From Rhizaria sp. SCN 62-66 (lineage: Eukaryota): a stretch of 20,000 bases of DNA. Below, one piece after another: positions 3,001 to 20,000 of this stretch. The stretch spans positions 108,595 to 128,594 of the forward strand of contig MEDY01000030.1 of the NCBI GenBank assembly GCA_001724265.1. The letters are read 5' to 3'. Numbering within the stretch: position 1 is the stretch's first letter; every line of letters starts with the position of its first letter. The position numbers and the translations under genes were made by a program. The notes beneath the pieces were generated by a model, which saw only the letters and a list, made by a program, of their open reading frames with translations, searched no databases and was not told the DNA's origin.

Positions 3001-6000
3001 GGCCTTTCGTCAATGGTCCCGAGCATCCGCAGCCGTTTCCTGCCCGCCGTGGGCTCCATCATCGCGCACGCTGCGGCTGCGGATGTGCGCGCGCCGTCCG
3101 GCAACGTGCACACGAGCGCGCTCGCAGTATGGGGCGTCGAACAACCGCCTGTGTCCGCCGCGGCGGCCGCGGCTCATCGCGCCGCGTCGTCGCTCGAAAA
3201 CGAAGAGAGCATGCGCGCGGGCTCGGCGGCCGCGATGGCGTTGGCGGCGGTGACGGCGGCGGCGTTCCACTCGAGTGCGATGCCGCTATACTCGCTGTCA
3301 ACCGAAGCGCCGGGGCTCGTAGAGGCACTGGCGCTCTCGCGGGGCGCGCCCACGACGGCCGCGGCGCTGGCGTTGACGTTTGCTGCGCAGTCTGGCGCGC
3401 ACTGCGGCGTCGACGCGTGCGCGCTGTGCCAGTCCACGGGCGACACCGAACACATGCTCGCGTGCGCCGTCTGCGCTATGGCGGTGCACGTCTTCTGTGT
3501 GTTGCCCGGCGTGACAATGAACAGCATTTCACCCGAGGCCGCCGCGGCGTTCCGCTGCCCTGCGTGCGCCACGTGCACGGGCTGCAACGCGCCCGGCTCG
3601 ATCGGTAGCGTGCACACCGAACAGGCCGAGAACGTGGGCCAGCAGCTGTTCTATTGCCAGGGCTGTCTCGGAGCGTGGCATCCTATGCGCTGCGCAGGTC
3701 GGCGTCAATTACATGAAGCCAACGGGTTCCGTTGTCCCGACTGCATGCGCTGCCGTTCGTGTCAGTTCCCAATGGCTGGTCGCTTCAGCTACTCGCAGCA
3801 GCGCGATATTTGCGCCACATGTGAGCGCCTCGATGTCATCGGCCTTGTCTGCCCCATCTGCGACAAGGGCTGGGTGGGGCGCCCGGACGCCAGCACGCAC
3901 CGCATGCTCAACTGCGACCGCTGCTCGCGCTGGGTGCACGCCGACTGCGAGGGCGTCAGCGCCGATACGCACACAAAGTGGGCCGCGGACCCGTGGCGCC
4001 GGTACACGTGCCCGCACTGCCGTGCCGGCGACGAGGCCTGTGCGGGCACCAGTCTCGCGATCGCGTACAATGATGGCGCGACGCGTGGTGTGGGGTCGTG
4101 GGGCCAGCGCCGCGCCACGTTGCTGCACACGGCGGTCCAGGGCACGCGGCCGACGCAGAACACCTCGTGGTGGTGGCGCCAGCCCCCTGTGGCGGCCACT
4201 GTGGGCGCCGATTGCGGCAGTCGCTGTATCAGAAACGCAGCAGTGACTGCGATCGCGGAGCTGCCGCCGCTGCCACACACGACGCACTTGTCCGCAGCAC
4301 CCACGTTCTCATTGTGGGCGACTGCGCACGCGGTGGGCCCCGCCGTTGCGCCAGTACCGTTGTGGGTGCTCTCGGCCGCGCTCGGCGACGCTGCGGACTC
4401 TGCGCGCACGCCGATGGGGCTCACGAAGGCTGCGCTCGACGCTGTATTTACGCTCCAGCGTGGCGGAGCTGACGGTGCGAACGATAACAACAGCGGTAAC
4501 AAAAACTCACTCTTGTCTCGGCTTTCCGCGCAGCACGGGCTCGCGCCGCATATCCCGGCCTCAGGCGCTTCTGCGGACGCGTTTGTGGCGGACGCGCTCG
4601 CGGCTGGCCTGCTTGCTCTCAACGGCTCGCCGGCCGCACAGTCGCCTGCGAGTGCCGCGATGCTGCTGCGCGGTCTGAGCGCCACCATTGCTTCCGCTGC
4701 GCCCGCGTCTGCGGTCTCTGCTGCTTTTGCCTCTGACGCGCTGACAACACATCGCGCAACTCTCTCGGTTGCAGAAGCCGTGGCGGCGCCCGCGGCGGTG
4801 GCGCAGTGCGGCGCGCGCGTGTCGCTGTCGCTTGCGCCTGAGGCGGCGGCCTTCATCAGCGCTGTTGCGGCCTACGCGTCCTCTGCCCCCGCCGCCGCCG
4901 CTTTGGTTGCGGCCGCGCGCAAGCCAGCGCTGCTGCTGGCGGCGCCGGCGTGGCGCGCGCGTCGTTTCCACGAGCCACCGACTGACTTCGCGAACTCTTT
5001 GCCTGAGCATATAGCTTTGATGGCGCTTAACGAGCCACCGCCGGTGGTTCTGACGGCGCCGAAGCGGCAGTCAGGCTCGGAGGCCGCTGAACCCGACACA
5101 GAGGCGGCACTGGAGCTGGACACTGACGCTGCGCGTTTGGCCGCGGCTACGGCTGCGGCGGAGGAGACCGGCCCCGACGGACGGCCCAAGCGGGCTCAGC
5201 GTAGCCGCGGACGCAAGAGTGAGGCTCAGAGGTTGCTCGAGCGCTCTGAGGCCGAGCTTATCTTCAAGCGTGGCTCGGAGAGCGATGCTGTGCCCGCAGC
5301 ATCGTCGACGCAGCTGTCAGCTAGTGCCCGAGCGGCGGCCGCTCTGTCCGCGCTGTCGGAGCAAGGCCTCACAGCCGCCGCCGCCGCTGCCGCGGGCTCC
5401 GGCACCGCGGGCGCGGGCACGGTTGCACTCCACGCTGCCGCCACCGCGGCCGCGCTGGTGCAGGCCGTCGAGCGCGCACAGGCGCAGCGTCGCCGTGTGC
5501 GTCGCCGGACTCTGCTCGACGTCCAGCGCTGCTCGCGCGCCGCGGCCACGGTCGGCGACTTCGGATTTGGCCACCCGCCGCCTGGCCCGAGCGTGATGCT
5601 GACCGGCGGGAGCGATTGTGACGACGACGCCGCGCTCTGGTCTCTGGTCCACTCTTCGTACGCGGCCGCCGGGTCTGAGGCAGGTGCAATGGGCGACTGC
5701 GCGGAGCCTGAGGTGCAACTGGGTGCTCTGGGCGTCACTGCACTGCGCCCGCTCCTGGTGTACGGCGAGCACGGCTTCTCGGTCGTCGACGGTCAGGAGT
5801 ATGCCACGGCGCAACCAGGCGCTTCAGGATCGCAGTTGCCGTCTGCGGGGATTCCCCGCGGCCGTGTACGCTCTTCGCTCAGTGGCGAAGCGCGCGTCAC
5901 CGCACCGCGCATTTTCAAGCGCCAGCTCGCCAAGACTGAGGACCTCGATGGATTCCTGGTTCTTGCGCCACGCACGCCAGGTATGCTGCCCTGGGTTCCT

Positions 6001-9000
6001 CTCACATCGCACTGCGACTTGACTGGCGGTGTTGCTGACACTGGTGCTTTGCGCAGGTTTGATATTTCGGGCCCCACACCCTCCCTCGCCCCGGTGCGCT
6101 TTTTCGCGCCTGCTGCTCCGGCCGCGGGCCGCGGCGTCGGTAAGCTCGCTGGCATCAAGGTGCGCGCGGCTTCGTTCGGCGCTCGCGCCCCCGTAGCCGT
6201 GAGCGCTAAACGGGCTGCTGAGTGCGCGGCGGTGCCTGAAATGCTCTCGGCCACTCTGCGCACTGCCCTCGCGCGTCTGCCGCCCGCCGACCGCGCCGCT
6301 GCCCGCGCCGGCCTCAACGGCTGTACCGGTGCCTACAAGCACTCGCATTGCAACTCCACTGCCAAGACGACTGAGCGCGAGCGCGAGCCTGAGCCCACGT
6401 CTGCGTCCATTGTCGCGAGCGCAACAGCTGAGTCGGAGCCCACGTGGCAGGCAGAGTCCAGCGACGCGATGGCTTGGTTCTTGCGCGTCGCCACGAGCGT
6501 GCCCGCGCTGTCCGCCGCCGCGGCACCGGCTCTTGGCCGCGAGGCGCTGCTGCCGCATGTCCCGCTGCCGCCCGCGCCGCACGCGCTCAAGGCCGACACA
6601 CGCACGTGCCTCTTCTGCCGCGGCCGCGAAAACGCGCACCCGCCCGGCGTCCACAGCACTGCGAGCCCCGGTCGCCTGCTCTCAGTCGGCTCGGTCCCGT
6701 CGGCGCTGTACGCGTCCGCACTTGAGACGGCCGAGTTCCCGGCCGCTCCGGGGCCCGCGGACGCGTTGCAGTCGACGGCCGCTATGGCGACTCGCTCACC
6801 GCTGCTGGCGCTGCCTGCGGGCGCGCGGGCGGCGATGGCGACGCTGCTGCAGTGCCCCACGAGCGCTTACACCACGCTGCCTGGCTGGGCGCACGCACAG
6901 TGCTTGGTCTGGGCCACGGGCGTGCAGGAGCGCTTCATCGAGGCCACGACCGCGCACGGCAAGATCACCGCCGCCACCCCGGGCGCTGTTGACACCGCGG
7001 TTCTTTCTGACGCCTCAGGCAACGTCAACGCCGCGGACGCCGCGGGTGTGGCTGGTGCCGCTACCCTTGCTACCGCTGCTGCTGCTGCTGCTGCCGGGGG
7101 CGCCGGTGATGCCGCTGCTCCGGCGGGCGAGGAAGGTGCAGCGGTGCCGCTGGAGGACGTGTTGATGTTCGAGACGCTACCGTGGGGCGCGCCGCCGCCA
7201 CCGATGCCTGAAGCCGCACAGTACTCGCCCTTGATGCACCGTGCACTGGCGCGCGTGCACAACCTCATGGTGGGCCGTCGCCGCCCGCAGGGCTCGCTGC
7301 GCACGCCGAACCAGCTCGTGCGCGGGCTCTGGGTGCTCGTGGGCGTGCCGCCGCTGCTGTTGGCGGCCGCGGGCCGTCTCTGCGACTGCTGCGCGCGCCC
7401 CGGCGCGTCGCTGCTGTGCGCGGGCACGACCTCCGCGGCTCCGATCGCGCAGTTTGCCGCGTGTGGCTGCGCGGCGCACTTCGGCTGCGCCGTGGCCGCT
7501 GGGTGGGAGTTCCTGGGTGTCCGCCGCGTGCATTGCCCCGCGCACCGGCCGCATCCCGTGGGCTCGCTGTCGGCGCTCGCGCAGTCGCAGCTGACCCCCG
7601 CCGTCGCGCGCCGCGTCGTGGTGCAGGAGGCGTGGGCCGTGCTGGGCGACGAAGCCGGCGCGGGCGCGGATATCGCGACACCACTCACTGCGCGCCTTGT
7701 TGCCACGCGGTCTCCCGCCGTGGCGCCGAGTGCGGCGAACGACGGCGAGGGCGAGGACGGCGACGCTGACGATGCGCCGGTGCCGCGCGCGACCGCGCGG
7801 CGCGGGCGCGGTCCAGGCGTGACGCGCATTTCGTTACGCGAGCGTGACCGCGACGGACGACGCGCTATCGTCCGCATGGCTGCCGCGCTGGTGAACGCGC
7901 TGGGACCGGACTCGATTCTGCCGCCGCTGGCCGCGGTTCTTGGCGCCGCGTGCGTGGATCGGCCCGTGTCCGAGGACTCTGTGCGTGCTGCGCTTGCGAC
8001 GCCCGGTGCGGGCTCCGCGCGGCGTCTGTTTGCGCTGATCGGTGCGTCGTGGACGGCCTGCCCCCCCGTGCCCATCATGCGCGGCGCGCCTCCGTTGTGG
8101 ACACCACAAACCACTGCTGAGCTCCGCCGTCGCGCTGCTGAGATGTTGATGAACGTGACCTCGGTCGATGACGCGCGCGCCGCCAACGCTGCCGCCGTCA
8201 CCGCCGCGGCTGCCTCCGTTGCCGTCTCCGCGCTCAGTCCGAGCAGCCCGAATAACGCCAGCAACATGCCTGGCGGGACTGGCGCGACTGCGCTTGCTCC
8301 TGTGTCGACGCTGCTGCACCTCGGCGGCGCCACTGTGCACAGGCTCGGCGAGCTGCTGCCGCTGCTGCCCGCGTTCCACTCGCCTGCGCGGCTCGTGCCG
8401 TTCGGGTTTGCGGCGACGCGCCGGATGTGGTCGTTCCGCACCCCACGGCGCCGCGTCGTCTATGCCTTCACCGTGGGCGCCGAGGTCGACGCGCCGGCTA
8501 TGGCCGCCGCCGAGGCCGCGCTGCTCGCGCTGCGCTCCACGAGCTCCTGGCGCGAGATGCTTGAGGCGTGGCGCGAGGACGAGGCGCGCGCGCTGGCTGA
8601 GGTGCACTTAACGTCGTGGCGTCGCGCCGGCGCGCGTGACGATCCCATGTTAGGGCTGATCGGTTACCAGGGAACGCAGTACCGCTCCACGACGGCGTCG
8701 CTGGCCGGCCGCGTGCGCGATCGGCTGGCGGTGATCGGCGCTGTGCCGCTCGTCGCTGTGTCGACCGATCCCGCAGTGCTCGCGCGTGTGGCCGATGCCG
8801 CGGGGGCGTACCTCGCTGCCGTTGCCGGTCAGGTCCAGACGCACTGCGAGGTCGAGGAGGCCGCTGCGGTCGAGGCTGCCAAGCTCGCTGCGGAAGCGGC
8901 GAAGGCTGCTGCGGAGGCCGCTGAGAAGGCGGCCGCCGAGAAGGCAGCGCGCCTGGCTGCCGCGGCCGAAAGGGCAGCTGCTGCGGCCGCGAGCTCCTCC

Positions 9001-11073
9001 AGCGACAACTTCTCTGACTCGTCATTCGCGACTAGTGAGAGCGCAAGCGGGTTCTCCAGCGCCACCGCCAGCGGTAGCGTTCCCGCTGACGCTGCTGATG
9101 CTGCTGCTGCAATTGCTGATGCTGATGCTGATGCGGAAGCTGCGGCGGCTCGTGCGCAAGCACTGGACGCGGCCGCCGCCGCGCACGCTGCGATGTCGAT
9201 GCAGAGGGACGATTTCGACGGTGTTGACACGACCACTCAGTCAGAGCCACTCCAGCAGCAGGTTAGCGGTGACGTTGATGACGCTGACGACGACGACGAC
9301 GACGACTTGCTGCTGGGCGTGCCGGGCTCTCTGTCCGCGTCAGCCTCGGCCTCGGTCGCCGCCGCCGCGGCGCGCTACCTGCCGCCCGGTTTGCTGTGGG
9401 CAGAGCTGGTGTCCGCGACCGTGGCTGCGTTGGACGTCAGCGTCGCTCCTACACTGCGCTGGCGCCCGCGCTACACGCTCACTGCTGCGGACGCGCCTGA
9501 CGAGCCTCTGGGCGACGCGTGCCCCGAAGCTCTCGCCGCCACGCACGCCGCGCGTGTCGCTGCTATCAACGACACGGCATCCGCGAAGAGCAGCCCTGCC
9601 GCGAGCATCGCCATGAGCGACACTCCCGCTAGCCTCCGTGCGAATATGAGCGCCACCACCGCCGCACCGCCGCTGCTGCTGCTGTTCGGCCTGATGCACC
9701 CGCTCGTGACGTCGATGCTCGAGCGCTCTGCCGCGGCGCCGCTGTGCCTCAAGTACCATTTCCGCCACCGCGCAGACATCGCGCCGCTTGCTGCCCGCGC
9801 GCGCGCTCTGTGCGAGGCCACCGGACTCGACGGCACGCTGCTGCGCGCGCTGGGCCTCGCGCCAGCGCAGCTCGAGGCCACACCCGAGCTGGCCGCAGTG
9901 CGCGCTGCGTTTGCGTCTACTCGCCGCGCGACACGGCTCGCGGCGGCCCTGCGCGCGCCCGCGGGCTCCGACCCCGCAGCGAGCCAGCTGCTGCTTGCGC
10001 CGACTTGGCACGACACGATGGCGGGCCGCGCGCAGCACGATCTGCCGCCCGTCGCCGGCGGCTGCGCGCGCGCTCAGGTGCTCTCGCGTCGCAAGCGCAC
10101 GAGCGCGCAGATGGGCTCGGCGCGCTACCTGGGCGCCAAGCGGCCCGCGCTGCGCGGCGACCTGTGGAGCGCGTCTGACGCCGAGGTGGCGGACTGGGCG
10201 ACGACGCGCTACGCCGGCGGTCTGTCGCGTGAAGACGCGGAGATGGCCGCGCTGCTCATCCCGGCCCCGCCGGAGCCCGTGGACGTGCATGCGGCGGCCA
10301 TCGCGGTCTCGCTGGCAGAGGCGGCGGGCGCGCCGGCGGCGGGCGCTGCTGCGGACGGCGGCGGCGGCGACGGCGACGGTGAGTCAGGCGCGGCGGGCGC
10401 GGGGCGCGATGGTGACGGTGCGGTGGCAGATGACGATGACGTCTCCGCGCCCACGGCCGGCGCTGCGGCGGCTGCTGCTGCGGCCGCTGCGGCGGCGTCT
10501 GCGGCGTCCGAGCACCGGCGCGACACGCGGTCCAAGGGCGCCGGCCGCGGCTCCGACGCGGTGGGCGGCGCTGATGACGGGTCATCTGGCGGTGTCGACA
10601 AGAAAAATCTCATCCCGATGTACCGCGAGATGAAGGAGGAGGCCGAGGCGGCGCGGCCGTGCGTGGGCCACTCTCCAATCCACGAGTGGGGTCTGTTCGC
10701 GGCGCATGACTACGAGCAGGACCAGATGATCATCGAGTATGTGGGCGAGATGATCCGCCAGAAGGTGGCCGACTCGCGCGAGAAGCGCTATGAGGCCGTT
10801 GATATCGACTCGTGCTATATGTTCCGCATCGATGCCGAGTGGATTGTTGACGCCACGAAGCAGGGCAATGCGTCGCGCTTTATCAACCACTCGTGTGACC
10901 CCAACTGCTACACACGACAGATCCAGGTCGATGGCGCCACGAAGATTGTTGTGTTTGCCAGCAGGTTTATCCCGCGTGGCATGGAGTTTACCTACGACTA
11001 TTGCTTCTCCAGTGAGGAGGAGCGCATTCAGTGCCACTGCGGCACCGCCAAGTGCTCTGGACGCCTCAATTAA
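1..11073 (+). CDS. Trithorax/MLL (KMT2/SET1-family) histone H3K4 methyltransferase, 5'-partial
   Basis: Frame 1 is open from base 1 to TAA at 11071-11073. The GTG 'start' at 55 is arbitrary because no stop lies upstream in the window. The C-terminus has SET (SPIHEWGLFA...IIEYVGEMIRQKVADSREKRY...RFINHSCDPNC...EFTYDY) and post-SET (CHCGTAKCSGRLN*). PHD fingers, a bromodomain, ePHD, FYRN/FYRC and a WIN motif occur in the order known for KMT2 proteins. Confidence 0.95.
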   Translation, partial: PGSASGDGEPTLVAGRDLVATELWQPKLRLNPAQEQTQYQVSWHLREWRFAGESLHLIPQLAYPRCPDCLACEHCGEPDEPEAMVTCDVCELRVHMQCLDPPLASRPPGGWICVDCVRCRSCNQSTSNRYAAPEELVYRALGRAPPKRPAGGSRAGNANTVNAEVAANSAKDRREAEAAAVELGFAKANRNKKIVHHADDDAPHGSKMRSSPRASKHLAAHVDGAMASASRSLFQAAHQRTSRARKPATVESGVPVLELLAREAALELSHPMLAARAGLPRPLVSALAIADALGLTIESMIPDKVRLPVMPEAPRAVVHLLVEEEATAQALAAAKVSANAAQAAAAAEHSERLASAASAASASAASAAVTDATAAAPEIATETDSTATAAAAAVAGPVPATESDVTTAMTDTDPSTIPDSASSASTTASTVPASTSATASATNAAGAASTTGAATTSMAEDEELAMRLAAEEAEGLGPAAAARRRAAAVRLDQLRSAAEAADEEASRKLVAPSVWLKIMYATCPFLQTPMLSLSALITRNFVPPVTPVSVLDATEYAEALREHRLQHRRDRPPLPYRPTTSRKSQVRRNGLFASYAELSDEEEAERVASRLQARAAATAPPPPLVWHAPPRPQEAAQTAFRAISKVLTALFSPQSPEGPDAPVRPVLVARDYLTLVRAQLQRHAVSSHWRVLGARPDDVPVWKFDYTMCYECGVRCDQNWSCPLCDKVWFEDEPEPMIECDTCQRWVHVKCDGMTGDVFEEAASDTVRYQCPECVNHKKTDLLLEVLDRLAALDRMGYFLSPITDDDAQGYSSVIKVPMDFSAIRAKLVELQYSSVDAFKHDLNLVWRNARDYNGLNSVVCKFAARLQQAAVEPINAVELRFRKRNETLAPAAGPGAGGRLQISSSAGGAAAPTTVATTGADSSASAATVTLVTDATGAAGEATEAAAEANDAAVSGSDAANAAASASAASGASDALNGASATGRDGANNNAKHATGLQSGLSSMVPSIRSRFLPAVGSIIAHAAAADVRAPSGNVHTSALAVWGVEQPPVSAAAAAAHRAASSLENEESMRAGSAAAMALAAVTAAAFHSSAMPLYSLSTEAPGLVEALALSRGAPTTAAALALTFAAQSGAHCGVDACALCQSTGDTEHMLACAVCAMAVHVFCVLPGVTMNSISPEAAAAFRCPACATCTGCNAPGSIGSVHTEQAENVGQQLFYCQGCLGAWHPMRCAGRRQLHEANGFRCPDCMRCRSCQFPMAGRFSYSQQRDICATCERLDVIGLVCPICDKGWVGRPDASTHRMLNCDRCSRWVHADCEGVSADTHTKWAADPWRRYTCPHCRAGDEACAGTSLAIAYNDGATRGVGSWGQRRATLLHTAVQGTRPTQNTSWWWRQPPVAATVGADCGSRCIRNAAVTAIAELPPLPHTTHLSAAPTFSLWATAHAVGPAVAPVPLWVLSAALGDAADSARTPMGLTKAALDAVFTLQRGGADGANDNNSGNKNSLLSRLSAQHGLAPHIPASGASADAFVADALAAGLLALNGSPAAQSPASAAMLLRGLSATIASAAPASAVSAAFASDALTTHRATLSVAEAVAAPAAVAQCGARVSLSLAPEAAAFISAVAAYASSAPAAAALVAAARKPALLLAAPAWRARRFHEPPTDFANSLPEHIALMALNEPPPVVLTAPKRQSGSEAAEPDTEAALELDTDAARLAAATAAAEETGPDGRPKRAQRSRGRKSEAQRLLERSEAELIFKRGSESDAVPAASSTQLSASARAAAALSALSEQGLTAAAAAAAGSGTAGAGTVALHAAATAAALVQAVERAQAQRRRVRRRTLLDVQRCSRAAATVGDFGFGHPPPGPSVMLTGGSDCDDDAALWSLVHSSYAAAGSEAGAMGDCAEPEVQLGALGVTALRPLLVYGEHGFSVVDGQEYATAQPGASGSQLPSAGIPRGRVRSSLSGEARVTAPRIFKRQLAKTEDLDGFLVLAPRTPGMLPWVPLTSHCDLTGGVADTGALRRFDISGPTPSLAPVRFFAPAAPAAGRGVGKLAGIKVRAASFGARAPVAVSAKRAAECAAVPEMLSATLRTALARLPPADRAAARAGLNGCTGAYKHSHCNSTAKTTEREREPEPTSASIVASATAESEPTWQAESSDAMAWFLRVATSVPALSAAAAPALGREALLPHVPLPPAPHALKADTRTCLFCRGRENAHPPGVHSTASPGRLLSVGSVPSALYASALETAEFPAAPGPADALQSTAAMATRSPLLALPAGARAAMATLLQCPTSAYTTLPGWAHAQCLVWATGVQERFIEATTAHGKITAATPGAVDTAVLSDASGNVNAADAAGVAGAATLATAAAAAAAGGAGDAAAPAGEEGAAVPLEDVLMFETLPWGAPPPPMPEAAQYSPLMHRALARVHNLMVGRRRPQGSLRTPNQLVRGLWVLVGVPPLLLAAAGRLCDCCARPGASLLCAGTTSAAPIAQFAACGCAAHFGCAVAAGWEFLGVRRVHCPAHRPHPVGSLSALAQSQLTPAVARRVVVQEAWAVLGDEAGAGADIATPLTARLVATRSPAVAPSAANDGEGEDGDADDAPVPRATARRGRGPGVTRISLRERDRDGRRAIVRMAAALVNALGPDSILPPLAAVLGAACVDRPVSEDSVRAALATPGAGSARRLFALIGASWTACPPVPIMRGAPPLWTPQTTAELRRRAAEMLMNVTSVDDARAANAAAVTAAAASVAVSALSPSSPNNASNMPGGTGATALAPVSTLLHLGGATVHRLGELLPLLPAFHSPARLVPFGFAATRRMWSFRTPRRRVVYAFTVGAEVDAPAMAAAEAALLALRSTSSWREMLEAWREDEARALAEVHLTSWRRAGARDDPMLGLIGYQGTQYRSTTASLAGRVRDRLAVIGAVPLVAVSTDPAVLARVADAAGAYLAAVAGQVQTHCEVEEAAAVEAAKLAAEAAKAAAEAAEKAAAEKAARLAAAAERAAAAAASSSSDNFSDSSFATSESASGFSSATASGSVPADAADAAAAIADADADAEAAAARAQALDAAAAAHAAMSMQRDDFDGVDTTTQSEPLQQQVSGDVDDADDDDDDDLLLGVPGSLSASASASVAAAAARYLPPGLLWAELVSATVAALDVSVAPTLRWRPRYTLTAADAPDEPLGDACPEALAATHAARVAAINDTASAKSSPAASIAMSDTPASLRANMSATTAAPPLLLLFGLMHPLVTSMLERSAAAPLCLKYHFRHRADIAPLAARARALCEATGLDGTLLRALGLAPAQLEATPELAAVRAAFASTRRATRLAAALRAPAGSDPAASQLLLAPTWHDTMAGRAQHDLPPVAGGCARAQVLSRRKRTSAQMGSARYLGAKRPALRGDLWSASDAEVADWATTRYAGGLSREDAEMAALLIPAPPEPVDVHAAAIAVSLAEAAGAPAAGAAADGGGGDGDGESGAAGAGRDGDGAVADDDDVSAPTAGAAAAAAAAAAAASAASEHRRDTRSKGAGRGSDAVGGADDGSSGGVDKKNLIPMYREMKEEAEAARPCVGHSPIHEWGLFAAHDYEQDQMIIEYVGEMIRQKVADSREKRYEAVDIDSCYMFRIDAEWIVDATKQGNASRFINHSCDPNCYTRQIQVDGATKIVVFASRFIPRGMEFTYDYCFSSEEERIQCHCGTAKCSGRLN
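193..2322 (+). other. First PHD cluster: tail of an upstream PHD, PHD (214-348), split C4 zinc knuckle (355-366 and 2125-2136), MLL-PHD3-like finger (2164-2322)
   Basis: Cys4-His-Cys3 patterns CEHC...CDVCELRVHMQC...WICVDC and CPLCDK...MIECDTCQRWVHVKC...YQCPEC. The sequence WICVDCVRCRSC ... WKFDYTMCYEC resembles the PHD2-PHD3 junction of MLL1-type proteins. Confidence 0.85.
2344..2640 (+). other. Bromodomain within the KMT2-like protein
   Basis: YFLSPI...GYSSVIKVPMDFSAIRAKL...QYSSVDAFKHDLNLVWRNARDYN matches the bromodomain ZA-loop PMD motif and the conserved NA..YN motif. Confidence 0.9.
3418..4020 (+). other. Second PHD cluster (three PHD fingers plus a C4 knuckle)
   Basis: CALC...CAVCAMAVHVFC...FRCPAC; CTGC...CQGCLGAWHPMRC...FRCPDC; CRSC...CATC; CPICDK...CDRCSRWVHADC...YTCPHC. 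Confidence 0.85.
6607..7545 (+). other. Extended PHD (ePHD, C2HC pre-PHD plus PHD), fragmented by insertions
   Basis: Segments DTRTCLFC...GRLL, then GWAHAQCLVWATGV.E, then CDCCARPGASLLC...CAAHFGCA...VHCPAH follow the KMT2 ePHD motif order. Confidence 0.8.
8314..9768 (+). other. FYRN (8314-8475) and a fragmented FYRC (about 9457-9535 and 9679-9768)
   Basis: LHLGGATVHRLGEL...FHSPARLVPFGFAATRRMWS...RRVVYAFTV is FYRN-like. PRYTLTAADAP and LFGLMHPLVTSMLE...CLKYHF are FYRC-like. Confidence 0.75.
10057..10080 (+). other. WDR5-interaction (WIN) motif, GGCARAQV
   Basis: Matches the G[CS]AR[AST]E-type WIN motif and lies between FYRC and SET, as in KMT2 proteins. Confidence 0.75.
10660..11070 (+). other. 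SET and post-SET catalytic domain
   Basis: Contains the WGLFA, EYVGE, RFINHSCDPN and EFTYDY motifs and the post-SET CxC-x4-C. Confidence 0.97.
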
Positions 11074-11428: not shown

Positions 11429-12839
11429 TCAAGTTGCGCCGCCGTCAAGCGCGATGACCTGGCCCGTAATAAAGGCAGAGCCGGGTGACGCAAGCCACGC
11501 GCACAGAGCAGCAACCTCACCGGGCGTGCCAGTGCGACCTGCTGCAGACCGCGCGATGACTTCGTCGCGGCGGGCCGCGGACAAGGCTGAGAAGAGTGAC
11601 GAAACACAGTAGAGAGTGAAGAAACACGTTGAAAATACAGCGAACGACAACAACCAACTTTTAAAACACACGGAAGCAACGTTGAAATAATGGAGCTATG
11701 TTAACCCGTCTTGTAAAATATTCGTTTACGCAGTAGGTAATATCTTCTCATGAGGATGTTTGGAGACGTACTTTTGCTGGTCATTTCAGTCTCGATGAAG
11801 CCGGGCGCAATCATGTTGACCGTCACAGAGTTGCCGCGGAAGGTCGCAACTTCCTTTGCAAGCGACTTAGTAAAGCCCACTGCACGTAGACGTATACAAA
11901 CAATGCAGCGAGATATGATAATCATTGTCGAAGAGAGTTGGTTAGTGTGGTTGTCGAAGAGAGTTGGTTAGTGTGATTTCATTCATTCAATCTTTGTCCA
12001 AACGCGCTCGACTCATTATCATCACCAGGTTTAAAGAAAGCAGAAAACATATCGCACATGTCGTCATGTGAACCAAAAAGCGGATTGAGCGTACCCATTG
12101 CGGACTTGGTGGCCGCGTAAAGCGTGAGCCCCGCCGCGCCCTGCGTGCCAACGATACTGCCGAACGTCACCACACGCAGATAATCACTCTCCGCACCGTT
12201 GCCTTTAGGTGCGTGCTTTAGCATCAGTTTCGCCGCGCTCATGGCGCCGCCCACGTTAACGCGGAAGGCATCGGTCACGGTCGCGGGCGCAGTGCGCAAC
12301 AACAGGCCCTGGGGGCAGACGCCGGCGCAGGCGTAGAGCTGAGACGCCGGGGCCGGGAACAGCGTGGGAAGCGCGCGGAAAACGCTCTCCAGTGCGGCCT
12401 CGTCACCCACGTCGCAGACAAACGGCGCGACAAGCTGTTGTAGCTCTGGCACAGCGGTGGAGTCCGAGGCAGCGGCTGGCGCGGGCGCTGAGGCAGCGAC
12501 GGTAGCGGTGGCGGCTGCGGTGGCGGTCATGGGGTCGCGGAACGACGCTGCAGGATGCGCAGGGGAAAGCGCAGCAATAGCTTTAGCGCAAGACTCGTTG
12601 GTGCTCGCAAGAAGCGCGACGTTGGCGCCGAGCGACAGCATTTGGTGCGCGATGGCGAGGCCGATGCCGCGTGTGCCGCCGGTGACCACGATGGTTTTGC
12701 CGCGGAGCAGCGTCGGGGACGGCAGAGAGGGCAGTGCGGGCAGCATGGGCACAGAAGATGCCGCACTTGATAGAGGTGCGGCGCATTGCGATAAAACACG
12801 GCGCACAGAGCGCGCAGACCGCAGAGCGGAGCGCAGCAT
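11429..12839 (-). CDS. Short-chain dehydrogenase/reductase, 3-oxoacyl-ACP reductase-like (FabG/CBR4/OAR1 type), probably mitochondrial. Exons 12839-12095, 11879-11772, 11586-11429 (336 aa)
   Basis: Rossmann motif TGGTRGIG, catalytic Ser (GSIVG) and YAATK. Splicing two GT-AG introns gives a continuous YAATKSAMVGFTKSLAKEV...VTVNMIAPGFIETEMTSKTLSAARRDEVI...GRTGTPGEVA...AFITGQVIALDGGAT*. The exons total 1011 nt, divisible by 3. The N-terminus MLRSALRSARSVRRVLS is Arg/Ser/Ala-rich with no acidic residues, typical of a mitochondrial presequence. Confidence 0.92.
11587..11771 (-). other. Spliceosomal intron 2 of the SDR gene (185 nt, phase 1)
   Basis: Donor A|GTACGT at 11771 and a pyrimidine-rich acceptor CTCTTCTCAG| at 11587. 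It is AT-rich, and splicing restores the frame into the conserved SDR C-terminus. Confidence 0.88.
11880..12094 (-). other. Spliceosomal intron 1 of the SDR gene (215 nt, phase 1)
   Basis: Donor G|GTACGC at 12094 and acceptor TGCAG| at 11880. It is AT-rich and has CACTAAC branch-point motifs with no other AG between them and the acceptor. Splicing restores conserved SDR sequence. Confidence 0.9.
11925..11975. repeat. Tandem duplication, 2 x 25 nt (TTGTCGAAGAGAGTTGGTTAGTGTG, period 26)
   Basis: Exact copies at 11925-11949 and 11951-11975, inside SDR intron 1. Confidence 0.95.
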
Positions 12840-13166
12840 GGGGATTGGAGTGGGGCTCTGGGCCAACTGAAGCGGAGAAAAGTTGAGGTCGTTTGCAGGA
12901 GTGTGATCGTCAAGTGAGTTTAGATTAAAATGCGGTGCCTTAAAATAATTATTTATATACTATTCATTAATTATATATTCTAAAACCCCTTTAGACACCC
13001 ACATTGCTCACTTTCTCCGTCTTCGATTCCTGTTCGTTGTGACCGTTAGACCTCCTTGGCTCGCGCTTTGGTTACCTCTTGATATCAAGTTGCATTCAAG
13101 GGTTTTCTCTTCAAGGCTGGTTTATCTGGGTTTTAACAAGTGGTTTACGTTAGATACCGAAATATT
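12840..13166. promoter_or_regulatory. Short divergent (bidirectional) promoter region with an AT-rich, TATA-like core at about 12940-12985
   Basis: 327 nt separate two head-to-head start codons (12839 on -, 13167 on +). The central tract TAAAATAATTATTTATATACTATTCATTAATTATATATTCTAAAA stands out against GC-rich flanks. Confidence 0.6.
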
Positions 13167-16100
13167 ATGTCGTACTCCCGCGACGGCGCGCAGTTCCAGA
13201 CACCGCGCGGCCCCGCCCCTGCCGTCGATCCAGATCTCACCCGCGGCTACGCTTCCTCCGCTCCTCCACGCGAACACACGAACCCATTCCACAGTCTTTC
13301 CCAGCGCGCCCACGCCGCGCCTTTTGACGGTTTGCGCGAGGCTACCCATTTATTGACGCCAATTCCTGCTGTCAGGCCTCCCGCGATGACTCCCCTCCGC
13401 TCTCCTTTCTCCGGCCCCGCGCCCGCGCCTCAGCCCGCGGTCGCTTCCAACTCTGCTACGAGCGCGAGATACGGCGTCCCCGCGGCCGTCCCGCTGCCTT
13501 TTAGTCTGCAACCGCGCCCTGCAGCAGTGAGCGCGCCCCAGAGCCACAGTAGCACGCACGGTCCAATGCACACCTCGACCATCAACACAAGCAGCAGCGC
13601 AGCAGCAGCTAACACGACGTCACACGCGGCCAGTGGCTCTCTGCTCGACGCACAGCTCTCTCATGCGCGCGCTGTGACGGCCGTCTCCGCGCCCGTCTGG
13701 CCGCCGCTGCCGCCGGCGCTGGCAGACGCCGCCACAGCCGCGCTTGCCACTAAAACATCGTACATCGATGTCCGCACGATGTCGCCCCCGCCACCCTCTC
13801 GAAACGCCCACGGATACGGTAACACGAGTGTTGATTACGGTGTTGCTAACAGTGGGCGCGGAGGGGTTGCGGCCGCAGCTGCAGCGGCGCGCGCATCGCG
13901 GATTGCGGCAGAGTCATCGTTCTCCGCAGTCTCCGCCGCTGCCACTGCAACGCCCTATACTCACATCCACAATCACAGTCAGGCTTATGGACACAGCGCT
14001 GGTTCCAACCGCGCTACCGGCATCAACGCGGTTCCGTTGCTGCAGCCAGTGCCTGTGCCGGCGAGTCTCGCTGTTCACAGTCCCGCAACGCACAGCAGTT
14101 ATCACAACCTCAACGCACTCAACGCGAGCGTCTTGAACACTAGCGCCAGCGCCGCCGTCGCCATCGCTGCCAGCGCCGGCGCAGCCGACGCACACGCGGT
14201 CAGCGAGACTCTGCGCCACTCGGCGTCGCTCTCGTATGCGAACTCGGCAGCGGTGGCTGAGGCGCTGGCGGCTCTGCAGGCGCGGGCGCTAGCTGCCGAG
14301 GCTGAGGCCGCGCGGGTCCGGGGCGAGTCCCTTCGTGCCGCGGCCGCCGCCGAGCGCGCGCGCGCCGCGTGGGAGGACCGCCTTGCCGCGGCGGCGCGGG
14401 AGCGAGACTCGGCGCGGTTGGAGCAGGAACAGACGGCTAAACGGCTCGAGCAGACCGAGGCAGCGCTCGCGCAGCGCAGTGCGGAGGCGGCGGCGGCGGA
14501 GGCGGCGGCGCGCGCGCGGGGGCGCGCAGACGCGGCCGCTGCGGGCGACGCCGCGCGCGCCGCTGCGGCGGCGGAGGTGGCCACCGTTGAGGCCGCCGCG
14601 CGCGCCGAGGCCGCCGCCGCCGCGGACGCGCACAAGACCGCCGCGGCGGCCGCGGGGGAGACGGTCCGCCGTCAGGCCGGGCAGATGCGCGAGCTCGAGG
14701 CCGCCGTGCTGCGGCTGGAGAGGGAGGCCGTGGCTGTGCGCGCTGAACGCGACCAGATCGCCGCGGAGGCTGCCTTCCTGCTGGAAGAAAAGACGCGTGA
14801 AGCGGAGCGCGCGGCGGCGGAGGTCGGCGCACTGGCTCCGGCGCGGGACGAGGCTGCCGCACTGCGTCGCGCGGGGGCTGAGGCTGCGCGTGAGGCTGCA
14901 GCGGCGCGGGCTGACGCCGCGGCGGCGCGCGCCGAGGCTGCGGCTGCCATCGACGCCCGTGACCGCGCCGCTGCCGCCGCTGCGGACGAGCTGGCTGCGG
15001 CAGACGCGGCGGCGGCGGCGGAGCGCGAGCGCGCGCGGGCCGACTGGCACCGCGAACGCGCCGCGCTGACCGCTGCGCTGGAGCGGGAGCGCGCGCGGTG
15101 GGACGAGGCCTGGCAGCGCACACGCGAGACCGCCGCGGAGGACGCGCGGCGTGAGCTCGCTCTGGCGGAGGCTGCGGCGGCGCGGGAGGTAGCCGCAGCC
15201 AAGGCCGCGGTCGAGCGCGAGCGCGCGCGCGCTGAGGAGCGCGTGGCATCACTGGCAGACGCGCTGGCCGCTGAGGCCGAGAGCGGAGCAGAGCAGGTGG
15301 CCGCGCTTGAGGAGAAGCTCCGGCGCGCGCTCGCGGCCGCGGCGCAGCACAGACAGGGCGTGTGCCGTTGTGTGTGCCAGACTGGCGACGGTGTGCCCTG
15401 CAGTGCGGTTGCGGCGGGCCAGGACCGCGTTCTTGTCAACTTCGTCTCTGACACGGATCATAACGCAAGTAATATGAACAACAATCAACATAACGCCACC
15501 GTTGACAATGTAACTGTTTCTCACAATGCTATTGCTGCTAAGCGTGGTGATACATCGGCACCGGCGACGCCACGTAGCTTTGCACGCGGCTTGCCTCCTG
15601 TGGAGTCGTCACCGGCCGCTGGAGCGCGTGGGACGCCTCTCAGGCACTCTTCTTCTGTCACCGGGATGCAACAGGGAAGCAGGGGCGCGACGCCGGCGCG
15701 CAAGTGGGTGCTGATCAGTCCCGCTACGACTGCGGCCGCGTCCGCTACTTCAGCTGGTGCTGCTGCTGCTGCCGCTCCTACACACGAGTCTGCCACAGTG
15801 GTCGATGCAGACAACGATCATCACAATGACGAAGAGCAGAGCCAGGGAGACCGTGAGCAAGGCGACCGCGAGAAGAGCCGTGCAGGCGACTCTGTTGTAC
15901 GCGCGTTGGATGCGATGCTTCACGATGCGTCGCTCACCACGCTCACCGCAACTGCTCCTGCACAGGGTGGAGTGGCTTTACACAGGGATATCCATGGCGA
16001 GAATGCGACAGCTACTTCGGCGAATCACAGTCACAAGGGCTCTGAGGTGTCTTACACCGGGCACTTTGCACAGTCTCCGTCGCACTCGCGCTTCTTTGCA

Positions 16101-19100
16101 CAATCACATACCGCCGCGACTGGCGCTGCTGAGACGGCCACGGAGTTTACGCAGACTCACGCGTACGCCGACGCAGCGCGTGCGCCCAACGCAAACGCTG
16201 GACTCCCACTTTAGCGGCCCTACAACTTGCCCAGCCACCAGCGTTCACAGTCGCTTTCTCACGGCAACACGAGCAATGCGGCAGCCGCCGCTGCGGCGGC
16301 CCAGGCCGCGGCCGCTGCACTGCGCTCACAGTCTCAGCTCCCGTCGGGGTTACACTCGCAACTACACTCGATCGCGCCCTCGCCGGCCGTTTCCGCCTCT
16401 GCCGCCGTCGCGCCCACCGTCGCCGCGACGGCTGCGGTGACTGAGGCGCCGTCGGGCACTGCGGCGCTGGACGCGTTTCTGAACATGAACATGAACATGA
16501 GCCAGAACGTGAGCGCGAACATGAGCGCAGCTGCAGGGAAAGCGAACACAAACGCTGCTGGGGGCGACGGAGCTGTTCTGGCCCCGCTCGTGGCAGCTGC
16601 ACTGAGTCAGCTGCAGACGCAGCAGTCGTTGTTGCTGCACGTGTTGGAGCGACAGGACCGCATTCTACTGCCGAATACTGCCGCTAGCGTGAATAACACT
16701 GCGCACAATACGGTGGTTGAGGCAGAAGTCAAGCCGCATCTGCTTCAGGTTAAGACACCAGTAAAGGAACGCACACCTGCACCCTCGCCCAAAGCACAGT
16801 CTTCATCTGTTCACGCATCCCCTGCTCCTGTCGCGGTGCCTGCTGTCGCTGACGCACGCAGTGCAAAGCTGTCGCTGCCGCTTCCGCTCACTCCGGCATC
16901 TGCATACGCCTTTGCACACGGCCATGACAGCAAGCGTAGCTTCAACTTTGCACCTGCACCTGCTATTGCTGAATCGCCCGCTGCGACTGCTGCTCCGGCC
17001 GCGCTCGCAGTGCCCTCGGCTCCCGTCTCCACAGCGCCCTCCCCTAGGGCCTCTGCTTCCCCAGCTGCTGCAGGCGCGGCGACACAGCCAAACGCTGCGG
17101 GGGGCCGGCCGCATCACCCTGCGTTCCGTTCCCCTTTGTCGCCTTCAGCGGCTGAGCGCGAGCGCCAGCGCGACCGCGAGGAGCAGCTGAGGCTGCAACA
17201 GCTGCAGCAGCTGCAGCTGCAGCGTGCCGGCGACAGCGAGGAACAGAGCTCGCGGCTGCAGAGTGACCGCGAGTCTGAGCTCGGCGGCTTGACAAGCGAC
17301 GACGAACGCGGCCAAACTTTCCTTGCGCTCGTCGACGATGACGTTGCTGACTCCAGTGACGACGACGCTTACTCGCGTTTTGCTCGCAAGAATGAGCCGC
17401 GCAATGCGCCCAGTGCGAAGAACAGCAGCTCGCGTCACAGCGCTGCACGCCCCCGTGCGCGCAGCAGTGTCACTACTCCCAGCGTCAGTGCCCGCGCCGG
17501 CCTCCCAGAACTCGAGCCCGTTTCCGATGCCGACGGTTACGATGCTGCGGCGGATGCGGCCGCGGTGGCGGAGCTCTCTGACGTCGCCTCTGACGCTGAC
17601 ACGGACTCAGCTACAGCGCGTCCAGCCTATGCGACTGCGGCAGCGGGCGGCGCTAGTAGTGCAGTGACTGTTGACGCTGCGCAGCTGGATAAGCTTGTAG
17701 CGACGGCGGCGTCGCTGACTGTGTTTTCGGAGCAGGCAACGCGGTCGATCTCGCAGCTTGAGCAGGAGAACGCACGGCTAAAGCAACAGTTACTGTCAAA
17801 CTCGACTGCGACTGAGGCTGGCGGTGCGGTCACCACTGTGAACACTGACTGGAGTAGCAGCGATGTCGACGCTGACGTTGGCGCCAACAACAGCGACGGA
17901 GATGCAAGTGATGATGAATACGGTCGCGCGAACGCTGCTGCTGCAATGTCATCTGCGGCTAACGAGTCTGCAAAGGTCCCGCGACTTGATTTGCCGCAGT
18001 CGCAATCTCCCTCACACGCACTGCCTGCGCTGCCACAGGCTCACGTCATTAACCATCCGTCACATTTGTAGAAATATGCGAACAGCGCGGCGCACCGTTC
18101 ATTCGACAACGACGTCCGCCCTGTTGGTATCTTGACAGACTCGCCCGCTCTGACCGCAATGGACGCCACGCTTGATACAAGCGTTGCCTCCCATAGCACT
18201 GTACGGCGCAACACTGCACACGGTGCAATGCCGCGGTATCAGGTGCCGACCGCTTCTTGGGAGCGTAAACAGCGCATCCGCGAGGCTGCCGCCGCCGCAC
18301 GCGCCGCTGCAGCCGCCGCGACCGCACAGCGGTCCGCAGCGCGCACGCGCTCGCGCTCACAGTCACGGTCACGGTCACGCTCCGGCGCCAGCGGTAGTCT
18401 GTTTGCGCCGGATTCTGCAGTCGCGCTGCCGTTTGTTGCTGGCCGGTCGACGGCGCCGTCGCACTCACTGCCAGTGACACTGCAGACCGTGCTTGCGGCG
18501 TCAACGCCCGTGCCGGCGCCGGAGTTCGCGTCTACCTCTGCGATGTACAGCGTGCAGAGGCGCGGACAGGCCCCTGCGCCGGCCCGACCTGAGGACAGCG
18601 GTGCCAATACAAGGCCAAACTTCGAGACGGGGCGGCCCGTCTTTGAAGATGATGGCGCGTCGTTTGTGAACGCCGTTCCGATGAACGATGTGATCGTGAG
18701 TCAGCACTCACTTGCGCATCCTTTGAACAACAGCACCAGTCGCGACCAGAGCTACACAGAGGCGCAGTCTCAGTTGCAGTCGAACGCAGCTGCGATGCCA
18801 GAGTCATTACAGACACTTGCGCGCGCTATTGCGGCAAAGGAAGCGAAGCTCGCTTCCCGCGTTGCTGAACTGCGCGCTCTGCCCGGTGCCCGCGGCCACC
18901 GCGGTACTGAGACTGAGGCTGACACCGCTGCGTGGGAGCGGGTGCGTGCTTATGATGCACATGTGCGCGCACTTCGCGTTGAGTTGCAGCTGCGCACTCA
19001 GGAGTGGGCTGCGTTGCAGGGTCAGTTCACTCATTCGCAAAGCCACGCAATTATGACTGCAGACGACTACAATGGGCGTGACGGAAATAACGGCGTTTTG

Positions 19101-19703
19101 TATGAGGATGCTGGCAGTGCAAACGCGAGTCACAGCTTTGTGGGCACCAACGCCAGCTTATACTTCCACGGCCACAATGCGCTTAACAGCTCCACAACCG
19201 ATGACCACGCAATGCGCTCGCACGCCCGCGCTCATAGTCACACTTTGCAGCGCGCCGCGCCGCTCGTGCGGTTAGAGTCACCCGCGCGGCTGCGTGTGTT
19301 TGCGACTCCAGCCGATGCCGCTGCAGCAGACGCTGCTGCCGCAGCTGCTGAGCTGAATGCTGTTCACAATGCTTCCGTCGCTGCCACAGAGGCTGCGCGT
19401 GTGAAGGCGTTGCGCTCTGGTCCCGCTGCCATTATCTTCACACCTCAGAATACTAGCAGTGCAGTCAGCACCACAGCTAGCGCAATGGCGTCGCCGTTGC
19501 GTGCTACAAGTCGGCCTGCCTCAAGCTCTGTTGCTCACAGTCACTTGACTGGAGCTGTGTCGGGCAATGGTGGGCTTGGGGTGATGTCCTCGCCGCCGCG
19601 GCGCGCACTGTACCGCAGTCAGGCTGCGGTAGACGCGGGTGAGAAACAGGTGCGCAGTATGCGCGTGATTTCGGAGCTTAAGGCACTGACGAGGCCGCAG
19701 TGA
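13167..19703 (+). CDS. Large hypothetical coiled-coil/intrinsically disordered protein (about 2178 aa), one reading frame containing two in-frame TAG codons (16212-16214, 18069-18071)
   Basis: Track ORFs 13140-16214, 16227-18071 and 18132-19703 are all in the same frame, and the only interruptions are two TAGs. The first ATG is at 13167 (MSYSRDGAQFQTPRG) and the frame ends with TGA at 19701-19703, followed by AT-rich sequence. Ala/Ser/Thr-rich coding composition is continuous throughout. No homolog recognised. Confidence 0.7.
14250..15350 (+). other. Long Ala/Glu/Arg-rich coiled-coil region
   Basis: About 365 residues of almost proline-free, A/E/R-rich helical sequence (e.g. MRELEAAVLRLEREAVAVRAERDQI, VAALEEKLRRAL). 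Shorter coiled coils lie near 17745-17796 and 18810-19020. Confidence 0.8.
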
Positions 19704-19926
19704 AAGCGACATCAATGTTAATTCTACAAGAGATTCACATGGTTAATATAGTTTGTTTTGTGACAAAATACACATTTTCTGACATTGGTTGCGACAAAAC
19801 AAGCGAAGTATCACATCTTTGTGATACGTAGAATGCCATACTTGAAAGGGAACGCGTACACGTGCGATTATTAAGTGCCCATAACACAAATTTTAAAACA
19901 AAGTAGTATGGGGTGGAGCGGACTAT

Positions 19927-19997
19927 AACTCACACGAACAAAAATGAACTATCACATAAGTCATCACAACTCACACGAACAAAAATGAACTATCACA
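19927..19997. repeat. Direct repeat, 2 x 30 nt (AACTCACACGAACAAAAATGAACTATCACA), possibly continuing past the window end
   Basis: Exact copies at 19927-19956 and 19968-19997 separated by 11 nt. The window ends in AACT, the start of the unit. Confidence 0.9.
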
Positions 19998-20000
19998 ACT

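Follow-up and report, generated by a model that had tools for sequence, protein, structure and literature searches.

To our knowledge, nuclear genetic codes in which UAG has changed without UAA are found in only a handful of lineages. One report describes UAG as leucine in the rhizarian exLh, with 384 in-frame UAGs in 71 genes, and as glutamine in Iotanema spirale (PMC5304391); another describes phyllopharyngean ciliates that read UAG as leucine or glutamine and prefer UAA as the stop (PMC11687900). The window analyzed here, a 20 kb stretch of the GC-rich eukaryotic contig MEDY01000030.1, contains a long reading frame at 13167-19703 that is interrupted by two in-frame TAGs (TAG1 and TAG2), and a metagenome contig that extends the window carries a virophage-like element with a third TAG in its packaging ATPase gene (Table 1). 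As in the UAG-only codes of exLh, Iotanema, and the phyllopharyngeans, UAG was the only stop codon found in frame, UAA or UGA ended all seven genes, and the sequence downstream of each UAG stayed coding. Unlike in those codes, no UAG stood at an alignable conserved column.

A sequence-only reading of the window had proposed that UAG may be decoded in this organism, through reassignment or readthrough, while UAA and UGA terminate. We tentatively prefer this explanation and put it at somewhat below an even chance that UAG is translated as an amino acid here and that UAA and UGA are the terminators. It was the best single account of the coding signal, the third TAG, and the absence of TAG from the seven gene ends, although it falls short of proof, TAG is rare, and one of the original arguments for it (that only TAG occurs) turned out to carry no weight. 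Translation of UAG accounts at once for all three TAGs, for a coding signal that continues past them, for an ATPase stop conserved among variants, and for gene ends free of TAG; our confidence in it is held down because the codon is rare and no TAG is alignable. If UAG is translated, it would be either a rare sense codon or the object of efficient organism-wide suppression. The interval 13167-19703 would then be a single gene whose product, a coiled-coil protein of 2,178 residues, is largely disordered, and the neighboring element would have an undivided packaging ATPase of ~271 residues. Decoding might depend on a transfer RNA (tRNA) with a CUA anticodon, or on a near-cognate tRNA combined with poor recognition of UAG by eRF1, and glutamine would be the simplest guess for the amino acid.

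Table 1. Positions of the interrupted frame, its neighbors, and the adjoining virophage-like element (window positions unless marked L001, the 7,121-nucleotide metagenome contig; +4, the base after the stop codon; aa, amino acids)
Feature	Position	Strand	Remarks
Segment 1	13167..16211	+	1,015 codons from ATG; disordered Ala/Ser-rich N-terminus, then long Ala/Glu/Arg coiled-coil-like stretch
TAG1, in-frame	16212..16214	+	context CTT TAG CGG, +4 = C
Segment 2	16215..18068	+	618 codons, low-complexity, short coiled-coil stretches
TAG2, in-frame	18069..18071	+	context TTG TAG AAA, +4 = A
Segment 3	18072..19700	+	543 codons; only conserved parts of the frame: coiled coil and C-terminal motif
Terminator TGA of the interrupted frame	19701..19703	+	AT-rich sequence follows
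ATPase in-frame TAG	L001 6882..6880	-	AAA TAG CAT, between Walker A (YAAPGSGKS) and Walker B (FLLCFDD)
Virophage-like element	L001:2316-7121 (~window-equivalent 20457-25262)	-	four genes, all TAA-ended
PLA2-like domain protein	L001:4141-5265	-	375 aa, lysine-rich; PF08398 5.3e-9, above Pfam cut-off
Tandem-repeat array, high-copy	19920-20000, on to L001 2043	.	Tandem Repeats Finder periods 15, 50, 95
MLL/Trithorax-like SET protein gene	1..11073	+	>3,690 codons, open at window start, TAA end
Short-chain dehydrogenase (SDR, FabG-like)	11429..12842	-	three exons, TGA end, Pfam adh_short 3e-21

The interrupted reading frame

The frame that begins at 13167 contained only two stops, TAG1 and TAG2, in 2,178 codons before its TGA, whereas the other two plus-strand frames over 13167-19703 contained 45 (5 TAG, 3 TAA, and 37 TGA) and 94 (15 TAG, 18 TAA, and 61 TGA). 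With stops at a density of 45 per 2,178 codons, a run of 618 open codons would arise by chance with a probability of ~3e-6 and a run of 543 with one of ~1e-5; the openness of the frame is far beyond chance. The frame was free of frameshifts, no TAA or TGA stood in it before its end, and nothing other than TAG2 stopped the 1,161 codons after TAG1. A coding score, in nats per codon, was calculated with a codon model trained on the neighboring SET gene, and segment 1 scored 0.52 and 0.33 against the shifted frames. The next in-frame ATGs lie 271 nucleotides (nt) after TAG1, at 16485, and 88 nt after TAG2, at 18159. The 90 codons between TAG1 and the next ATG scored 0.405 and the corresponding 29 codons after TAG2 scored 0.442, compared with a gene mean of 0.40 and intergenic means of -0.11 to -0.21. 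The coding score was unbroken after the TAGs, which means that the three open reading frames (ORFs) formed a single coding frame, if not now then until recently. Thus, a single frame with two TAGs as its only interruptions and coding-like sequence between each TAG and the next ATG, as the sequence-only reading had described, was confirmed. As to its further remark that the junctions lack AT-rich spacers, the 270 and 87 nt after the TAGs were GC-rich and coding-like; the GC content around TAG1 was ordinary (26th-46th percentile), and TAG2 lies in a short AT-rich patch.

Relatives of the frame were few. Segment 1 matched no Pfam family at E <= 0.01. The translation of 16215-19700 with TAG read as Q was compared by phmmer with 1.84 billion representatives, and three matches were obtained, namely two of the gene's own ORFs and one relative, P0003; segment 2 found only its own ORF (P0001). 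The 359 aa of P0003 matched the C-terminal 400 residues of segment 3, starting at about residue 139, with 49% identity over 71 residues and 67% identity over 36 residues. The coiled coil of segment 3 reads AKEAKLASRVAELRA...WERVRAYDAHVRALR. The best-conserved part was a C-terminal motif at window 19587-19700, SSPPRRALYRS..(K/D)KQV..MR..SELKAL, in which 24 of 36 residues were identical to P0003; it may serve as a targeting or interaction motif. Because P0003 keeps this motif, segment 3 encodes protein and is being translated or was until recently. When P0003 itself was used as the query, only P0003 and P0002 were recovered. A profile search for relatives of the frame was swamped by low-complexity words, and the 8,000 candidates scored yielded only the gene's own ORF.

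Both TAGs were also present in other data. A DNA contig from X3, a possible source sample, covered 14606-19944 without any difference from the window, and a contig from X4 (record 14), a 2025 sample of another study, covered 17581-18317, including TAG2, also without any difference. One X4 contig includes both introns of the SDR gene, so X4 behaves as a DNA sample. No variant was detected at TAG1 or TAG2 in any of the four runs compared, and the 614-aa ORF bounded by both TAGs is on record from six contigs, one from JGI and five from Logan/ENA. Because both TAGs recur in other assemblies and samples, they are not assembly errors. A sequencing error or a CAG allele at these positions, which the sequence-only reading had named as its possible undoing, was not seen in the four runs compared.

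A further possibility is that the TAGs are missing from the messenger RNA (mRNA), because they lie in short in-frame introns that are spliced out or because A-to-I editing turns UAG into UGG, as it does in sexual-stage transcripts of some filamentous fungi. A candidate intron of 72 nt spans TAG1 (16163-16234); it is in frame and has the donor GTACGC, like intron 1 of the SDR gene, and the acceptor CAG. Pyrimidine-rich runs resembling splice acceptors precede both TAGs. However, the predicted SDR introns are 185-215 nt long with a GC content of 0.39-0.41, compared with 72 nt and 0.65 in the candidate, and among the candidates over TAG2 none had a GTACG or GTAAG donor, so that no candidate over either TAG resembled the introns predicted in the SDR gene (185-215 nt, GC ~0.40, GTACG). 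A contig from the X5 polyA metatranscriptome (record 24, 17911-18146) retained TAG2 with no differences, unspliced and unedited, and P-loop profiles crossed the TAG of the ATPase without an insertion. The X5 pieces listed do not reach 16212 (TAG1), and X8, which is labeled as RNA and is probably DNA, covers neither TAG. We regard introns or editing as the least probable of the explanations considered.

A TAG in the packaging ATPase of a virophage-like element

Integrated virophages and polinton-like viruses occur in protist genomes. A scan of metagenome contigs for the locus returned one locus, JGI contig L001, which is identical to window 18142-20000 (1,859 nt) and extends ~5.3 kb past the window end. 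Beyond the tandem-repeat array, the GC content of L001 falls to ~49%, compared with 60-70% in the host genes, and a block of four genes follows. These encode a Sputnik-type major capsid protein of 630 aa (PF22031, MCP_V20_C, 4e-10, 39.8 bits, cut-off 27), a V18/19-type minor capsid (penton) protein of 292 aa (PF21507, 1e-7, 31.3 bits, cut-off 27), a PLA2-like domain protein, and a P-loop ATPase truncated by the end of the contig. A Sputnik-like morphogenetic module consists of a double jelly-roll major capsid, a minor capsid (penton), and an FtsK/HerA-type packaging ATPase, and the block contained all three and is thus such a module of a virophage-like element, the ATPase being recognized by its Walker A and B motifs and sub-threshold P-loop matches only. 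The PLA2-like domain, which is best known from parvovirus capsid proteins, is an unusual passenger in such an element.

Like integrated virophages, the element combines a V20-type major capsid, a V18/19 minor capsid, and a P-loop ATPase in one block, adjoins a host gene, and exists in several variants. Unlike them, it has an in-frame TAG in the packaging ATPase and a PLA2-like domain protein, and its apparent integration is carried by one contig. The protease, integrase, and polymerase of virophages were not seen on L001, which ends inside the ATPase. Public assemblies contain several variants of the element with 93-99% identity. The penton was full-length in five of seven cluster members (95-98% identical to the L001 copy), and the PLA2-domain protein was full-length in three of four. 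Scans of GTDB genome contigs, and of IMG/VR with the capsid protein and the ATPase, returned nothing. The repeat array had a depth of 205-418 in all four runs, compared with ~6-7 in its flanks. The array may be a terminal repeat of the element, and chimeric assembly may have occurred there.

Five Pfam P-loop profiles aligned across the ATPase TAG without an insertion, all below their cut-offs; the AAA_22 profile, for example, matched residues 7-113 on profile positions 5-109. Translation begun anew at the first ATG after the TAG would yield a second half without Walker B, because that ATG lies beyond the motif. Six variants of the N-terminal ORF of the ATPase (136 aa) were on record, 93-99% identical and all ending at the same residue, and six variants of the C-terminal ORF, 98-100% identical, were all intact. 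Variable columns numbered 10 of 136 upstream of the stop versus 2 of 117 downstream (Fisher p = 0.04). No uninterrupted ATPase was present among the 42 candidates scored. Intact, diverging element genes together with a fixed ATPase stop and a conserved downstream half are hard to read as decay, and the pattern would fit translation through the stop. In further comparisons, PHROGs gave only weak matches (terminase large subunit, E = 0.0038, for the ATPase), the PDB sequence search with the ATPase returned unrelated proteins with a best E-value of 0.079, and an AlphaFold2 model of the read-through ATPase, made with no alignment, was poor (mean predicted local distance difference test score 42.7).

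A fixed stop position could also reflect programmed, site-specific readthrough under the standard code, with low-rate full-length products beside truncated ones, for which readthrough in viral gag-pol or replicase genes is the model. As in such systems, each UAG is followed by a long in-frame extension and the ATPase stop is conserved in the virophage variants, at the same position in six of six. The base at +4 was C, the leakiest base after a stop codon, at two of the three sites, TAG1 and the ATPase TAG, the latter also having A at -1 and -2, and a virus could hold the level of its ATPase low in this way. However, the RNA over the 100 nt after TAG1 and TAG2 folded no better than shuffled sequences (z = -0.56 and +0.57), providing no stimulatory structure, and TAG2 has A at +4. 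The tobamovirus-type readthrough motif is CAR-YYA, and none of the three sites matched it. In addition, the ATPase stop splits one catalytic domain rather than separating two functional products, and it is hard to see what a fragment with Walker A only would be used for. It would also be unusual for one cellular gene to have two readthrough sites that add 618 and 543 codons. These differences make programmed readthrough improbable in our view.

Terminators, TAG frequency, and competing explanations

Seven gene ends were present in the 25 kb covered by the window and L001, of which five were TAA and two were TGA. The sequence-only reading had noted that TAG is not a confident terminator in this region, and this remained so in what is a small sample, four of the seven ends belonging to the element of 49-50% GC. 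The terminators that it had assigned to the window genes were also reproduced, TAA for the SET gene and TGA for both the SDR gene (after removal of two introns) and the interrupted frame. We rejected as evidence for reassignment the argument that only TAG, and never TAA or TGA, occurs in frame, since nonsense mutation gives TAG in most cases anyway: given the codon usage of the target gene, TAG is the outcome of 65-70% of its one-step nonsense changes, and in the ATPase the share is 52-58%.

The same bias favors an explanation under the standard code in which TAG1 and TAG2 are recent nonsense mutations that leave a truncated or decaying allele of a dispensable, fast-evolving, low-complexity gene, and the TAG of the ATPase is a defect that copies of a defective endogenous element have inherited in common. 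The conserved neighboring genes are without TAG, the target is an orphan with one distant relative among the representatives searched, and both of the two segment 3 single-nucleotide polymorphisms (SNPs) are nonsynonymous. In addition, the samples are nearly identical (5 differences in 9 kb), and the TAGs could be young. However, nonsense mutation has to account for the absence of any frameshift or further stop in the 1,161 codons after TAG1 and for a coding score that is unchanged past the TAGs, and it requires three independent events in two unrelated genes within 25 kb. It must also accommodate an ATPase stop that is kept in six of six variants differing by up to 7%, with a more conserved downstream half, intact companion genes, and no intact helper copy among the ATPase candidates scored. 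Of the usual marks of a pseudogene, frameshifts and mixed stops were absent from the target, and relaxed downstream constraint was seen in neither the target nor the ATPase; very recent nonsense lesions may be compatible with this. We consider nonsense mutation unlikely, though a rival to be taken seriously, and if it is correct, nothing about the finding is out of the ordinary.

Several observations weigh against translation of UAG. The first is frequency. TAG occurred twice in the 2,178 codons of the target and not at all in the 3,690 codons of the SET gene or the 336 of the SDR gene, confirming the earlier statement that it is absent from ~4,000 neighboring codons and would be a rare codon. 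CAG occurs 167 times in the two large genes, at least 80 times as often as TAG. The three in-frame UAGs in ~7,700 codons, which fall in two genes, give a density orders of magnitude lower than that in exLh (384 UAGs in 71 genes), and none of them is on a conserved alignable column. Both TAGs of the target are in unalignable low-complexity sequence, P0003 gives no alignment at either site, and P0003 is short and begins well inside segment 3. The nonsynonymous nature of both segment 3 SNPs is a further point of this kind, and three TAGs out of three has p ~0.25 under the nonsense-mutation null. ARAGORN detected no tRNA in the window and L001 (25 kb), and Rfam gave no matches.

The remaining adverse points concern the element and the RNA. 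The ATPase stop was seen as TAG in L001, and the other five variants were compared as proteins. The link between host and element is L001 alone, through the high-copy repeat, and no contig with the exact PLA2-domain and penton proteins exceeded 7,121 nt, compared with up to 122,100 nt for contigs with the target ORFs; L001 may be a chimeric join, or the element may belong to another organism in the same samples. Another X5 contig, 11440-11688, keeps 102 nt of SDR intron 2. Because this contig retains intron sequence, X5 cannot be taken as mature mRNA, and the library may hold DNA or pre-mRNA. As to the expectation that RNA would keep the TAGs unspliced, X5 keeps TAG2 intact but part of an SDR intron as well, and TAG1 lies outside the X5 pieces listed.

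Finally, TAG2 resembles a real gene end in some features. Its +4 base is the same as that of all three host terminators, it lies within 30 nt of AT-rich sequence (0.6th percentile of the gene), and the 29 codons upstream score weakly as coding sequence (2nd percentile of the gene). These features favor separate expression of the ORFs, following gene fission or through internal initiation, with TAG2 as a true terminator and segment 3 starting at ATG 18159 or 18228. The ATG at 18159 has G at -3 and +4, and the sole relative, P0003, spans the C-terminal module only. However, the spacers under this arrangement would be 270 and 87 nt of GC-rich, stop-free, in-frame, coding-like sequence, compared with real spacers of 324-355 nt that are AT-rich; a contig from an RNA library crosses TAG2; and the ATPase, with its Walker B between the TAG and the first ATG, would be left unexplained. 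Separate expression therefore seems very improbable to us, though slightly less so than introns or editing.

On the reading that UAG is translated, a broader and somewhat more doubtful proposal is that an uncultured, GC-rich, intron-poor wastewater eukaryote uses a rare sense UAG, with UAA and UGA retained as stops, and that a resident virophage-like element has adopted it in its essential packaging ATPase. Such a code change, affecting UAG alone, would be new and would lie outside the known lineages; it might be at an early stage, and it would be visible both in a host and in its mobile virus. Two traits would be unusual, namely the very low codon frequency and the presence of the same codon in an essential gene of a virophage-like element. 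If true, the low frequency could mean that stop-codon capture is at an early or ambiguous stage here, the very stage disputed by theories of code change, and the sharing of the codon would show a mobile virus tracking the code of its host. In the open-access literature, we found no report of stop codons inside virophage genes and none of a wastewater eukaryote with a variant code. Standard gene callers split genes of this type and databases hold only the pieces, so that the proteins of such organisms systematically appear as fragments in metagenome catalogues.

Neighboring genes and differences between samples

Coding sequence in the window has a GC content of 60-80% and intergenic sequence ~46%, and the interrupted frame is one of three genes present, beside the SET gene and the minus-strand SDR gene. 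The real spacers between them measure 324-355 nt and are AT-rich. The host is GC-rich and intron-poor, and nothing points to a ciliate. Atlas searches with the C-terminus of the SET protein and with SDR exon 1 returned only generic clusters of SET and SDR proteins. Near-identical DNA occurs in bioreactor, wastewater, and activated-sludge metagenomes, with part or all of the window in 11 of the 13 runs listed, from eight studies.

The SET gene is a single uninterrupted, intron-free ORF without an in-frame TAG and matched the Pfam families SET (1.6e-24), PHD (2.5e-23), Bromodomain (5e-18), and FYRN (5e-12). In the gene model proposed for the SDR, intron 1 is predicted at 12094..11880 (215 nt, GC 0.41) and intron 2 at 11771..11587 (185 nt, GC 0.39), both with the donor GTACG. 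Once both are removed, the modeled product of 336 aa is uninterrupted and without an in-frame TAG. A direct repeat of ~30 nt was observed within intron 1.

The window and the 2025 sample X4 showed three coding differences, all nonsynonymous: 12562 P>H in the SDR gene, and 18390 S>R and 19177 N>S in segment 3. The window and X4 also differed at two places in the spacer between the SET and SDR genes.

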